Source of the DNA: Octopus sinensis
Taxonomy: Eukaryota
Length of the DNA: 37,898 nucleotides
Direction: 5' to 3'
Assembly: GCF_006345805.1 (NCBI RefSeq)
Contig: NW_021832754.1
Location: 1 to 37,898 of the forward strand
The translations under genes were made by a program, and so were the position numbers. Position 1 is the stretch's first letter. Each line of letters starts with the position of its first letter. This document shows positions 20,505 through 31,435 of the stretch, piece after piece. Below the pieces are notes generated by a model. The model had not been told where the DNA came from. It saw nothing but the letters and a program-made list of their open reading frames with translations, and ran no database searches.

Positions 20505-23475
20505 GTCCAGCCACACGTATTTTTTTATTTGTTTCTTCTAATCTCATTAGTTTTTAAAATTTTTATGATGAACTCGTCCGTCTCTGCTTTAATTTTTATT
20601 CCTTCCAATGTTACAGGCAATTCTTGCACAACATTGCACAATATATTTTTTAAATTTCATTTTCGGCTTTCAGCACCGCTATCAGTGTCTTCTAGTGGTT
20701 CGCTGTATTTTGATATTAACCTTGACAAACCATCTGCAATATTTTCGATGGAAAATACTTCATTTTGAAGTCGTTATTCAGTAAGATTGTTTCCAAGCGC
20801 TGCAATCTGCTGGGTGTATGTGTGAAGATACCCTTTTTTTATCCATAGATCGACAATAATGGGCTGCGGTCTATCTACAAGCGGAACCTTCTTCCATGTA
20901 TAAATTTATGGCATTTTTTTTACCGCAAATATGATGGCTAATGCCTCTTTTTTCTATTTGATTGTGACTTTTCTCAGCCGGCAATAATGAACACGAAGCA
21001 TGAGCTACTGCTTTCATACTACCATCTTCATATTTGTGTAAAATCTTAGTTCTAATACCACTTTCACTAGCATCTGCTGCCACTATCATTTCTAAATTCG
21101 GGTCAAAATGTGATAACGATAATTCCGACGTTAAAATGTTTTTAATTTCTTCAAAAGCTTTTTGGCATTTGTCCGACCAGTTCCACTTAACGTCTTTTTT
21201 TAACAAGTTATTCAGTGATGCTCTTAAATCGTGCCTATTCGGTATGTATACCTGGTAGTAATTTGCGAGCTCCAAAAATGCTTGTAACATTGTAATGTGT
21301 GTCGGAGGAGGCATATTTTTTATTGCGCTTGCCCTAGACGGGTCTGGTCTGCGCCCATTGTCATAAATAATTTGCCCTAGATATTTTATTTTTGGCATAA
21401 AAAATTCGCACTTTTCCTCGCTGAGCTTAAACTCATAATCTTTATTCTTTCGAAGACCTTTTTAACATGCTCAGCATGCTGACCCCGAGGTTCACGTTTT
21501 TATGAGTATGTCGTCAAGGTAAGCTACAGCGAAATCCGAAATTGCAAGCATAATGTCTATAACATGTTGGAAAATGCCAGGTGCTACCTTTATACCAAAG
21601 AGGAGTCGATTAAATTTATACAACCCTTTATGGGTATTTATTGTCAATAATTTTGAACATTCCTCATCGACTTTTACCTGCAAATATGCTTCAGATAGGC
21701 CCAACTTTGAAAAAAAATTTTCATTCATTCACCTTCGTGAAAATTTCTTCTGGAATTAGTAACAAGTAATTATATGACATCAAACATTCTTTTAATACCA
21801 TTGAAAAATCAGCGCATATTCGGATTTTATTATTTTTTTTCTTGACATAACTGTTGGGGACACCCATTTTGTGAAATCAGTTTTTTTTTTATTACACCAA
21901 GCTTTTCAAGTCTGTCCAATTCTTCATTGACTTGTTTCAACGCTGCGAAAGGTATTGTTTGTTTTTATCTAAAAAACCGGTATAGCGTTTTCTTTCACTT
22001 GAAACTTCGACCCTGTTCTGGTGCAAAGACCCAATTCCTCAGAAAAAACTTCCGGAAAATATTTTTTTAATTCTCTTTTTAAATCCTCCGACGCTTTATT
22101 TGTACAGGTGGAAGAAGAATTCACATTTTTACCAAAAATATTTATGGGAGGTCCCATAAGTTAAATAGTTCCATCCAGTCTGTTCCAAATAAATTTGTTG
22201 TATTTTTCAACACAAAAGCTTTGGGGTTCAATGTTTTCCCACGAAATGTAACATTACTTGTCATTTCGCCCATAAAATGCAATTTTTTTCCTGAAACACC
22301 TCACAGAATTTCCGAAGTTTCCTTTAATCTAGGTTTCCCTATTTTTCTCCATGTATCTGTATTAATTATCGTGACATCACTACCCGTATCCAATTGTAAC
22401 TTGATATTCACATTATTCATTTTTATGGGCACAAATTTTCTTTTCTGAGCCTCGTTCAGAATTTTTGTTAACAAAACATTCTTTCTAGGATTTGTTTTGT
22501 TTGACCCTTTTTTTCGTTTTGCTATACAATGTAAGCTTTTATGTCCAATTTTCCCACACTCAAAACGTTTACAATTTTTAAAAGGACAATTACTCCTAAA
22601 ATGTAAACTTCCGCACCCATAGCATGGATTTGGTCTTGATGTTCATTTTTCCTTTTTTTTTATCCGCTTCAGGTCGACACGCATGTATCTGAGAGCAATC
22701 TTTTTCTTCAATTTTATCCGCGTCATGTCTTATAATTTATAATCCTCTGGCATTCTTCAGCCTTAGTTAATTTTTGGTCCTGTTCTAATTTTGTTAATAT
22801 ACGGGAATATATTTCAGCATTTTTTCTTGCAGTTAACCCTTGAACAAAAATTAGACATTTGAAGAAATCCGGGGTTAATTCATTTAATTTGAATGTTCAC
22901 ACTCTCTGTTAACGACCCCCAACATAGGTGACGAAATCTTCATCATCTTTTTAACTAAATTTAAACATTACCAACGAATATTGGACAGGGAACTTCTTTC
23001 ACTAAAAAAATCTCGATAATTAATTAATTGTTTCATCGAAACAAATTTCCACCTGGTTTCTTCGGCAGAATATAATTACAGTGTTTTTCGTGTTCGGCAG
23101 GGGATAACTTTCTTAAAAGTAGTCGCACATTCTTCTCGTCATTCCAATTTTTACAATCCTCTTTGAAGATTTCTTCGTATCTTCTAAAATATGTAGGAAA
23201 AGTAGTACCTTCTTGTGGGTTATAGATAAATTCTCCAATTGAGTTTGCTACGCCGTCCAACGAGAACGAACCTGAATTATTTTCAGACTTCGTCAACATG
23301 ACTTCCGGAATCTGTTGGTATTGTTGTTGCTGCTGTTATTGCTGTTGCAACTGCACCATGCAGCCAGTAAGTCTTCTATGTTAATGATTTTTTCTTTGAT
23401 TCGTACCAAAAAATAAAATAAAATATATATATTTTTAACGTCCGACGCAAGCTTCGAATATCTCGTCGTCACTTT
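20505..23475 (-). mobile_element. Degenerate Ty3/Gypsy LTR retrotransposon (gag, protease, RT, RNase H; integrase missing)
   Basis: PBS-like gtgacgacgaga at 23472-23461; gag ORF 23033..23299; zinc knuckles CYGCGSLHFRSNC and ECGKIGHKSLHC near 22525-22625; protease LQLDTGSDV near 22375-22400; RT AYLDDIL (ORF 21492..21728); RNase H AADASESGI and ADGLSRL (~20740-20720). Confidence 0.93.
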
Positions 23476-24371: not shown

Positions 24372-24444
24372 TAAGGTATGTAGAAAAATACAACATGGAC
24401 AAGAACGTATAACTCATAGAAGACGATACATAAACATGGACAGG

Positions 24445-24590
24445 ACATTCGAACCCCTCAGTCTTCAGTCAAGAACCGGATCATCGTAGTAATTTCGGCT
24501 GATTAATCTTGAGATTACTAGATCACGGCCAGCCCTCCAAGAAAAACTAAGCTGGAAGCGTAGATTTCCTGGAAGAAGGATCGAATGCAT
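24445..24590 (-). ncRNA. Putative reverse-order hammerhead-like motif, type 1 (copy a)
   Basis: Minus strand: ggcug-gccgugauc-UAGUAAU-C-UCAAGA-uuaau-cagcc-GAA-AUUACUA-cgau-gauccggu-UCUUGA-CUGAAGA. Predicted cleavage after the C at 24513. Confidence 0.65.
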
Positions 24591-25238
24591 ACGAACACCA
24601 GGACAGCAAAAGGGACAGATATAAAAAAAAACAAAAAACAATAATGGAATACAGAAACATGAAATACAGAAGCATTAACGGTGAAAACAACAAGTGTCTT
24701 ACGACTGATAACAAGCAAACAAATTTTTTCTCTGGCGCATTGGAAAAAGCCTTTATAGCGGCGGACGAAGAACAACGATGTTAACACGACGAGGGTCAGG
24801 AGCTGAAAGGCAGATTTCGGCCAACAGTCACGTGACAGAGAAGAGGAAAAGAAAAGAAAGAGAAGCAAAGGAAGAGAGAGAGAGAGAAAAAGGGGGACAA
24901 AACGCAACAAAGAGAGAGAAGAGAGAGAAAGAAGGAATCAGAGAGGAGAAGGGATGGGTGTCGAAGAATGACCTGTGAGTGCAGAGCGAGACAAAGAAAT
25001 AGGAGGGTAGTGGAAGACTAGACCAAAGGATCAGAGGAAAGAGAAGATGATAGAGAGAAAGTAAAAATGAGAGAGAGAGAGAGACAAACAGAGAGTCGTA
25101 CCAATTATTAAGAATATATGTTCACATTAATGATAAAGGGGTACGGGGCGCCTGGAATATAAGTTAAGGTATGTAGAAAAATACAACATGGACAAGAACG
25201 TATAACTCATAGAAGACGATACAATAAACATGGACAGG

Positions 25239-25384
25239 ACATTCGAACCCCTCAGTCTTCAGTCAAGAACCGGATCATCGTAGTAATTTCGGCTGATTAA
25301 TCTTGAGATTACTAGATCACGGCCAGCCCTCCAAGAAAAACTAAGCTGGAAGCGTAGATTTCCTGGAAGAAGGATCGAATGCAT
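25239..25384 (-). ncRNA. Putative reverse-order hammerhead-like motif, type 1 (copy b)
   Basis: Core identical to copy a; predicted cleavage after the C at 25307. Confidence 0.65.
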
Positions 25385-25449
25385 ACGAACACCAGGACAG
25401 CAAAAGGGACAGATATAAAAAAAAACAAAAAACAATAATGGAATACAGA

Positions 25450-25511
<62 letters not shown>

Positions 25512-30530: not shown

Positions 30531-30846
30531 TTCTTGTTTGTATTTGTAATTGTGTACCATGTTCTCCGTTTTTTGTCTTTGTTGTCGTACACATTCGCTA
30601 GCTTTCTTACAAAAACATAAATGCTTTTAGCTTAGATTTGGTGGCGGGGAAGGAGGCAACCAGATCGAACAGTCTCAAGTGTAACTGCCCGAAACTGTAA
30701 GGACATCTAGTAGCTTGACTGACGAAAGAAGGCCACGAATGGACCCATCCATTTTTTTTTCTTGTCTCTCTTGTTGTTTTTCCTGTCTGCCTTTGTGCCG
30801 TCTATCTGTCCGGATGTTTTATTGTCCTCTATTGTGTTTTTGTTCC
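30531..30846 (+). mobile_element. Solo PLE-like terminal repeat in (TA)n
   Basis: T-rich ~315-bp segment flanked by (TA)n; distantly similar to the 24371-24660 repeat. Confidence 0.6.
30592..30741 (+). ncRNA. Putative reverse-order hammerhead-like motif, type 2
   Basis: ggca-accagau-cga-ACAGU-C-UCAAGU-guaac-ugccc-GAA-ACUGU-aaggac-aucuagu-a-GCUUGA-CUGACGA-aagaaggc. GUC triplet, with C at 30674. Confidence 0.65.
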
Positions 30847-31435
30847 TATATATATATATATATATAATATATATATATATTATATATATATATTAATATA
30901 TATATATATTACATATAGCGGCGTACGTAACCATTGCTCACCATACATACATACATGCATAAATACATGCATGCATCATAGCATAAATACATGTATGCAT
31001 GCATAAATACATGCATGAATGCATGCATACATACATGCATGCATACATACATGCATGCATGCATACATACATGTACTGAATTGATTGATTGAAAGATAGA
31101 CAAACATACAGACGGATAGAATAAAAGTGGGAGAGAGAGAGAGAGGTGGAGGAGAGAGAGCCAAATAGAGAGAGCGCGGGGAGAGGCAAACATAAAGATA
31201 GATAGAACACTGTAACGAGAGTAGGGCAGTAAAATCTGCAGAAGAGCAAAACAGACTGTTACTGATGCTACCTTTTTGCCAATTTTTCTTACCAGACTGC
31301 AAAAGCATACAAAAGAATCACCGAAACGTTTTGCACCCAAGTAATAATAAAAAAAAGTGAGTGTAAAGAGAAGAATAGAGAGACTGAAAACGATGAACAA
31401 TAAGAAGATTTAATAATATTAATCATTATCATCAA

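Follow-up and report, generated by a model that had tools for sequence, protein, structure and literature searches.

A candidate split hammerhead ribozyme with S-G-C block order in a decayed Penelope-like retrotransposon copy of Octopus sinensis

Hammerhead ribozymes consist of three sequence blocks, S, G and C, whose circular orders define types I, II and III (CGS, GSC and SCG). One viroid ribozyme tolerates an additional base following A9. The six-permutation scheme of Eckert 2023 assumes that the step from A9 to G10.1 is uninterruptible, and its search patterns demand G or UG directly after CUGAUGA (PMC10085705). As far as the available text of that paper goes, A9 and G10.1 are separated by at most one or two bases in every known hammerhead; type CSG is represented by two examples, and the published SGC ribozymes, which carry the same linker helix P and short linker between stems I and II as described below, do cleave (PMC10085705). 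Likewise, the available parts of PMC3088659, PMC6765202 and PMC6155905 contain only one- or two-base core insertions. Hammerhead variants with additional helices are mentioned in a 2026 paper (PMC13725137), and the accessible part of one of the three sources it cites (PMC10162972) holds no text on additional helices. Subscription journals apart, the literature yielded no paper on SGC or split hammerheads in animals or in Naiads, and the term 'type-SGC' in one paper. Naiads, which are Penelope-like elements, have been reported to lack canonical hammerheads: a core (n = 9) or half-core (n = 8) was flagged in 17 of 54 consensus sequences, with no fold given in the text available, and the flagged cores did not fit the descriptors used (PMC8557442).

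The window analyzed here is the whole 37,898-nt stretch of contig NW_021832754.1 of Octopus sinensis. By homology, a copy of a repeat that we call family A spans about 30510 to about 30945 (plus strand), crossing a TA run (30847-30909) into a 3' tail (30910-30942). It had been described as a solo repeat of ~315 bp, and is instead a 5'-truncated piece of a non-coding Penelope-like unit of ~745 bp (unit length taken from locus L018) with ribozyme, TA run and tail. The latter, an optional extension typical of Penelope-like elements, occurs in seven of 27 parsed family A loci, with the unit running on in L002 and L018, and the 3' end of the family is fixed at +101 to +120 in 24 of the 27.

The hammerhead core of the window copy is complete (C3 U4 G5 A6 N7 G8 A9, G12 A13 A14, A15.1-U16.1 and H17), and its segments lie where the original prediction had placed them. 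Block S (30669-30680) comprises the stem III strand ACAGU (30669-73) with U16.1 (30673), C17 (C30674), after which cleavage is predicted, and the stem I strand UCAAGU (30675-80). Block G (30686-30698) comprises the 11.x strand of stem II, GAA (30691-93; G12-A13-A14) and the stem III strand ACUGU (30694-98), and block C (30713-30725) the stem I strand GCUUGA (30713-18) and the box CUGACGA (30719-25), in which N7 is C30723. Stems I and III measure 6 and 5 bp. The order S-G-C is given by no circular permutation, and the copy therefore falls outside types I, II and III, including the type I hammerheads of retrozymes.

The periphery differs from that of the published SGC ribozymes in that the G10.1 strand of stem II (30654-30658) and the 5' strand of helix P both lie upstream of block S. 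GGCA (30655-58) faces UGCC (30686-89), and helix P (30659-65 with 30705-11) has a single mismatch (A30709), both as originally described. The step from A9 to G10.1 is interrupted, as A9 enters a helix IV whose partner strand continues via a hairpin V to G10.1. Helix IV unites the two closing helices of the original prediction (inner 30601-08/30726-33, outer 30592-97/30736-41); its 5' strands occupy 30592-30608 and its 3' strands (30726-30741) follow directly after A9 (93% and 85% of cells paired; present in the minimum free energy (MFE) fold). Hairpin V (30609-30653), located between helix IV and stem II by alignment with the family and visible as a hairpin in the MFE fold of sister copy L029, turned out to be the gc..agcttag motif noted earlier as shared with a copy at 24.5 kb, and is present in both families. 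Between stem III and helix P, a 3-nt bulge, GA and C (30699-30704), followed by the 3' strand of P with its mismatch (up to 30711), stand opposite C30666, G30667 and A30668, which continue the 5' strand of P (30659-30668). A 3-nt bulge plus GA opposite GA is the standard k-turn sequence pattern. This k-turn-like loop, the predicted four-way junction and the Penelope-like (Naiad) context are additions to the original prediction.

Read from 5' to 3', the fold would proceed through a helix IV strand, hairpin V, stem II (10.x), helix P, stem III-UH-stem I, a short linker, stem II (11.x)-GAAA-stem III, bulge plus GA, helix P, stem I-CUGANGA and again helix IV. A four-way junction would join the core to IV, V and II, presumably with the core stacked on II and IV on V. 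As in published SGC ribozymes, helix P would fasten the distal ends of stems I and II to each other, and where stem III ends, the k-turn-like loop would make P fold back. The element shares block order, helix P and the short I-II linker with type SGC; it lacks an unbroken block C, as a 10.x strand 0-2 bases after A9 occurs in 0 of 17 cores of family A and 0 of 27 of family B (the 24.5-kb family), and is possible only in two further families, D and F. With block C broken between A9 and the 10.x strand, the element is not filed as an SGC ribozyme, although it would work like one.

The window copy had been regarded as an independent copy arguing for selection on the structure. This part of the claim finds no support in that form: 2411 candidates for the repeat occur in the genome, the best 40 being 82-86% identical, and the family is homologous to the 24.5-kb family. 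The copy is an old, neutrally decaying member of family A, and selection acted on master lineages, not on copies. A comparison with the family consensus, proposed at the time, does show mismatches reverting to pairs. A30709 is G in 20 of 25 other family A rows, G30713 (a G.U pair in stem I) is A in 24, and A30654 at position 10.1 is G in 22. The earlier caveat that the C11.1 equivalent (C30690) has no obvious partner here finds its answer in the same position, since the family partner is the upstream G10.1 (10.1-11.1 is G-C in 39 of the 43 A and B rows), which is lost in this copy; A30654 opposite C30690 leaves no such pair unless G30653 pairs with the A bulged. Hairpin V is damaged at 30616-19 and 30637-41, and an 8-nt G-rich insert absent from family A (30642-49) separates it from stem II. 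Nonetheless, the catalytic bases are intact despite several hairpin V changes relative to the 25 other rows. Single-sequence folding of the copy is no better than that of shuffles (z -0.09 and z -0.94), as expected for a pseudoknotted and decayed RNA, and in the MFE fold the P strand is caught up in a different helix. Due to the A at 10.1, the insert and the helix mismatches, the copy is probably impaired, and probably slow or dead as a ribozyme; activity of its own is conceivable but less likely than not. The young 24.5-kb family is the better test object.

The central claim of the original prediction, a reverse-order hammerhead whose pairings are kept while the letters differ, is supported by covariation between families A and B and by families C to F. 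A pattern of stem I, GAAA and CUGANGA in S-G-C order has 4917 exact matches in the genome, versus 0 for the reversed control. With a structure descriptor, an upstream G-C stem II was found in 124 of 151 S-G-C cores across 242 loci (reversed 0/1, locally shuffled 0/0), a result that reflects descriptor specificity rather than frequency, as the loci were largely chosen for holding such cores. All helices are retained in five or more families whose stems differ, a lower bound given that the families come from pattern searches. Family C was met by accident with a generic descriptor (1782 candidates), whereas a pattern fixing only CGAAA, GAY and CUGANGA gave 1746 matches versus 105 in the control and revealed D, E and others; families C, D, E and F were all found by descriptor or by a pattern fixing no stem. 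The predicted cleavage sites vary across families (GUC, AUC, GUA and GUU), and the upstream partner of stem II begins with G in every one of them. Among hand-picked representatives, stems pair within and not across families, with 4.8 versus 2.8 of 5 pairs for stem III, 5.0 versus 3.1 for stem I and 4.9 versus 2.3 for stem II (4.9 equals 44 of 45 pairs with one 5'-truncated row left out; the mean is 4.4 with that row).

The joint alignment of families A and B holds 43 of the 59 rows parsed; rows with large indels and near duplicates were left out, and L009 and L017 failed to parse. Pairing reaches 91% of cells in stem II, 93% in stem III and 98% in stem I, against 29-44% in slid controls. Two-sided changes amount to 119 cells versus 47 in shuffles that ignore relatedness, stem I and core being fixed by the search for rows L061-L090. 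Three of the five stem II pairs change on both sides between the two families. Two of five covariation measures are no better than shuffles, namely two-sided pairs (11 versus 9.2; 89/500) and further pair types (36 versus 36). The k-turn pattern (bulge, G.A, A.G) is kept in A, C, E and the B2 and B3 forms of family B, and altered in B1 and D, with U at 2n. GA follows the bulge in 15 of 17 A, 25 of 27 B and 15 of 16 C cores, counts that are circular for loci found by the CGAAA/GAY/CUGANGA pattern; in unfiltered family A loci, GA at the loop site is kept in 29/29 and 28/29. Helices P and III are present in the MFE folds of L029 and L064, and the MFE folds of B1, C, D and E favor other nested pairings.

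No hammerhead family is among the Rfam 15 matches listed for the window, the window copy or the 24.5-kb copy. A metagenome pattern scan returned five matches, none with the stems and all taken as chance, and viral contigs returned none. Within the window, a further S-G-C core of another family lies beside a TA run at 11570-11675 (minus strand), with an AUA site, a 7-bp stem I and helices IV, P, III and I recognizable by eye; without hairpin V or an upstream stem II strand it is a deleted or variant copy, and it has no relative among the 242 loci examined. A candidate antisense hammerhead upstream in family A, consisting of one CUGANGA, was dropped by eye for lack of stems. Elsewhere in the genome, L120:575-625 (plus strand) holds a hammerhead-like motif of canonical type I, with stem II letters equal to those of family B, and L160-L162 (about 25.83 Mb on one genome contig) form a 763-bp tandem that matched the loose pattern and was not parsed as a ribozyme.

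The anatomy of the copies is that of a retrotransposon. At 24375-25454 (minus strand), alignment and parsing reveal a young family B insertion of 1.36 head-to-tail units of ~795 bp with two intact ribozymes (24444-24589 and 25238-25383; predicted site after C24513). The 40 top matches are all 100% identical, although cephalopod Naiads have been called old remnants (PMC8557442). Families B and D form head-to-tail arrays of units of about 795 and 835 bp with no coding frame and one ribozyme per unit, and family A, equally non-coding, is seen only as 1.x units of ~745 bp. The (TA)n target, tail, partial tandems and 5' truncation are those of Naiad-type copies. Among contigs from sequencing runs, which come without molecule ends, four organism codes hold family B; no RNA run is on record among the runs holding these families, and one run contains an 845-nt wrap-around contig that is as compatible with a circle as with a tandem in DNA. 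In A, B and D (L018:1315, L045 minus, L157:1962), a pyrimidine-rich tract is followed by a CACGTG box 296-359 nt upstream of the cut site; the published Naiad_Ovul 5' end has such a box as well, a possible internal promoter. The family B insertion is flanked by a 201-bp, 98% inverted repeat (24001-24201/26095-26295). Further long inverted pairs in the window are located at 11849-12243/13516-13905 and in a 107-bp hairpin at 10693-10919, and broken Gypsy-like gag and RT/RNase H frames (20871-23335, minus strand) and broken non-LTR RT frames (3549-5904, minus strand) were seen by eye.

On these grounds, we consider it probable that the window copy is a decayed copy of a retrotransposon whose family RNA is an S-G-C hammerhead with the G10.1 strand upstream, likely self-cleaving once per unit and likely a non-autonomous passenger of Naiads. 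In an intact member, normal hammerhead chemistry would cut after C17, the activity of the four-way form being extrapolated from known hammerheads. Cutting of head-to-tail transcripts would yield unit-length RNAs of 745 nt (A) or 795 nt (B), which could circularize as animal retrozymes do, by analogy with the available accounts (PMC7229834; preprint 10.64898/2026.07.22.740005). A Naiad RT-endonuclease would then nick (TA)n DNA and prime within the RNA, some 110-190 nt downstream of the cleavage position. Such internal priming, modeled on PMC11167929, would produce the fixed 3' end, optional tail and variable 5' truncation observed in the copies.

The link to Naiads is direct for family C. Its core lies 1.1-1.7 kb downstream of a Penelope-type RT on the same strand at 10 of 30 RT loci and never antisense; the other 20 show no core within the 1.5-kb flank examined. 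The RT and the Naiad CxC region were both seen at family C loci, and two published consensus sequences, Naiad_Obim and Naiad_Ovul, have family C as their 3' end (PMC8557442 File S5). Pfam did not recognize a 125-aa piece of the Naiad RT, whose identity comes from comparisons of RT loci and a by-eye match to the published protein. For the non-coding families A and B, which consequently carry no Naiad ORF (N-terminal GIY-YIG, CxC, C-terminal RT), no coding partner was found; shared architecture, target and tail make Naiad their likely partner.

Another mobilizer is possible, if unlikely, for A and B at present, namely younger Penelope-like elements with a C-terminal endonuclease (or another RT), with the ribozyme model unaffected. 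These elements end in (TA)n and have intact 782-aa RT-GIY-YIG frames in many copies, while no intact Naiad frame was seen in the genome loci examined (longest 320 aa) and family B still spreads. Their own ends, however, bear a minimal type I motif of another kind, with U3 and A8, and the split architecture is shared only by Naiad. As S-G-C carriers they were rejected, with no core in their own ends at eight long and 30 GIY-YIG loci; cores beside them (L094, L116, L190 and L200) look like separate insertions. As this alternative concerns present mobilization and not origin, it is compatible with a Naiad-derived ribozyme. The minimal type I-like motif, in which U3 and A8 replace C3 and G8 and stem III is palindromic, lies 3' of the RT-GIY-YIG frame in young Penelope-like families (L116, L117, L119 and L185-L208), L119 having a 499-aa upstream frame.

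The published Naiad consensus ends suggest how widely the split layout is distributed. Read by eye, the full layout is present in Naiad_Amil, Aacu, Anas, Naiad-2_Movir, Naiad_Plae and both octopus entries, thus in coral, box jellyfish, acanthocephalan and octopus, with unrelated letters in the three Acropora Naiads, Naiad-2_Movir and Naiad_Plae; one further entry (Clytia by file order) and Naiad_Bfor, with a 2-bp stem I, also show it, again in unrelated letters. Two arthropod entries are S-G-C with other peripheries, and four Nippostrongylus/Haemonchus entries plus two more are type CSG (all by eye, from 52/62, 27/43, 12/23 and 12/25 of the motif matches found). The nematode 3' ends are clean type CSG, with 5-bp stems I and II, a long stem III and a linker helix of 10-12 bp. 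No such core was seen in the bivalve ends displayed, which argues that the split core is not universal in Naiads. Judging from these sequences, the split S-G-C layout likely explains the apparent absence of hammerheads from Naiads. We lean slightly toward a broader reading as well: Naiads across animals would use non-circular hammerheads, in a seventh topology with A9 and G10.1 split by a four-way junction (ctenophores, cnidarians, acanthocephalans and cephalopods) and as CSG in nematodes, active and present in thousands per genome, giving circular retrozymes of 750-830 nt, with a k-turn that lets a host protein of the L7Ae family time the cut.

As to function, the main rival holds that the fold is real and serves as a protein-binding or RT-recruitment structure of the 3' end, cleavage being slow, protein-dependent or incidental and copies arising from uncut multimeric transcripts. 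The genomic copies do span the cut site intact, and the k-turn-like loop hints at protein binding. For a Penelope-like element of an anole, moreover, catalytic mutants left insertion unchanged, none of the RNA-seq reads terminated at the site, and cleavage depended on protein and was dispensable for insertion in vitro, according to the text available (PMC11167929), and eight of nine Xenopus retrozyme dimers did not cleave in vitro (preprint 10.64898/2026.07.22.740005). Yet unrelated families and phyla retain every catalytic position, and not the stems alone, whereas N7 is variable. Among 29 unfiltered family A loci, N7 is C in ten, U in six, G in six and A in seven, whereas the other six CUGANGA positions are kept in 27-29, U16.1 in 29 and C17 in 28. 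N7 is freely variable in the hammerhead consensus too (PMC3088659). A free N7 beside fixed core bases is, in these sequences, the signature of selection on masters rather than copies, and points to selection on catalysis, which renders a purely structural role improbable.

It is less probable still that the element is an ordinary type-SGC ribozyme, in which the strand immediately following A9 would build stem II and the role of the upstream helices would be limited to regulating or trapping the fold. Families D and F would allow it, since each of their 7 cores (7 of 7) can form a downstream stem II of at least 4 pairs, which may connect them to classic SGC, and competing folds dominate several MFE predictions. 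In A and B, however, a downstream stem II is impossible: none of the 17 and 27 distinct cores reaches 3 pairs there (0/44), versus 11 and 23 reaching 4 pairs with the upstream strand, and this upstream partner covaries at 3 of 5 pairs and invariably starts with G. Finally, a chance resemblance amplified by repeat copying can practically be dismissed: copy number alone is no proof of function, the window copy folds no better than its shuffles and Rfam lists no hammerhead, but six helices and the core persist, written in different letters, in at least five families and in several phyla, and the controls gave 0.

If a split hammerhead mobilized with Naiads is correct, non-circular RNA permutations move from a few hundred metatranscriptome sequences to animal genomes with thousands of copies, and the assumption that the CUGANGA block is inseparable from stem II falls. 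It would also explain why Naiads seemed to be without hammerheads, previously read as the ribozyme being dispensable for Penelope-like elements. It would further supply short constructs open to direct testing, a set of compensatory variants made by nature and, for RNA engineering, a new point at which the hammerhead core accepts an insertion. The window copy itself is a worn example of the split form.

Compared with known systems, the families resemble animal non-LTR retrozymes (PMC7229834; Li et al. 2026) in their non-coding head-to-tail units, single hammerhead per unit, thousands of copies and Penelope-like affinity. Those retrozymes are type I and mostly 150-450 bp, whereas the order here is non-circular, the units are 745-835 bp and circular RNA is putative. 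With Naiads (Craig et al. 2021, PMC8557442) they share the (TA)n target, fixed 3' end, optional tail, 5' truncation and partial tandems, though families A, B and D are non-coding. The loop of A, B2, B3, C and E has the 3-nt bulge, G.A and A.G of a standard k-turn, and 3b=C (A) or 3n=G (B2 and B3) fits the rule for ion-induced folding, so that a kink is predicted (PMC5061560, PMC4382518); the coral Naiad consensus has a plain bulge in its place. Type SGC (HRIMA-1 and variants; PMC10085705) has the same S-G-C order, full core, short I-II linker, P helix and direct link between III and P. Type SGC consists, in the available text of that paper, of metatranscriptome RNAs only, none from the genomes of known organisms, while the present element is an animal retrotransposon. 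Moreover, the 10.x and P strands of type SGC lie 0-1 base after CUGANGA, whereas here they are located upstream of block S, with helix P joined to stem III on both strands via a k-turn-like loop or bulge.
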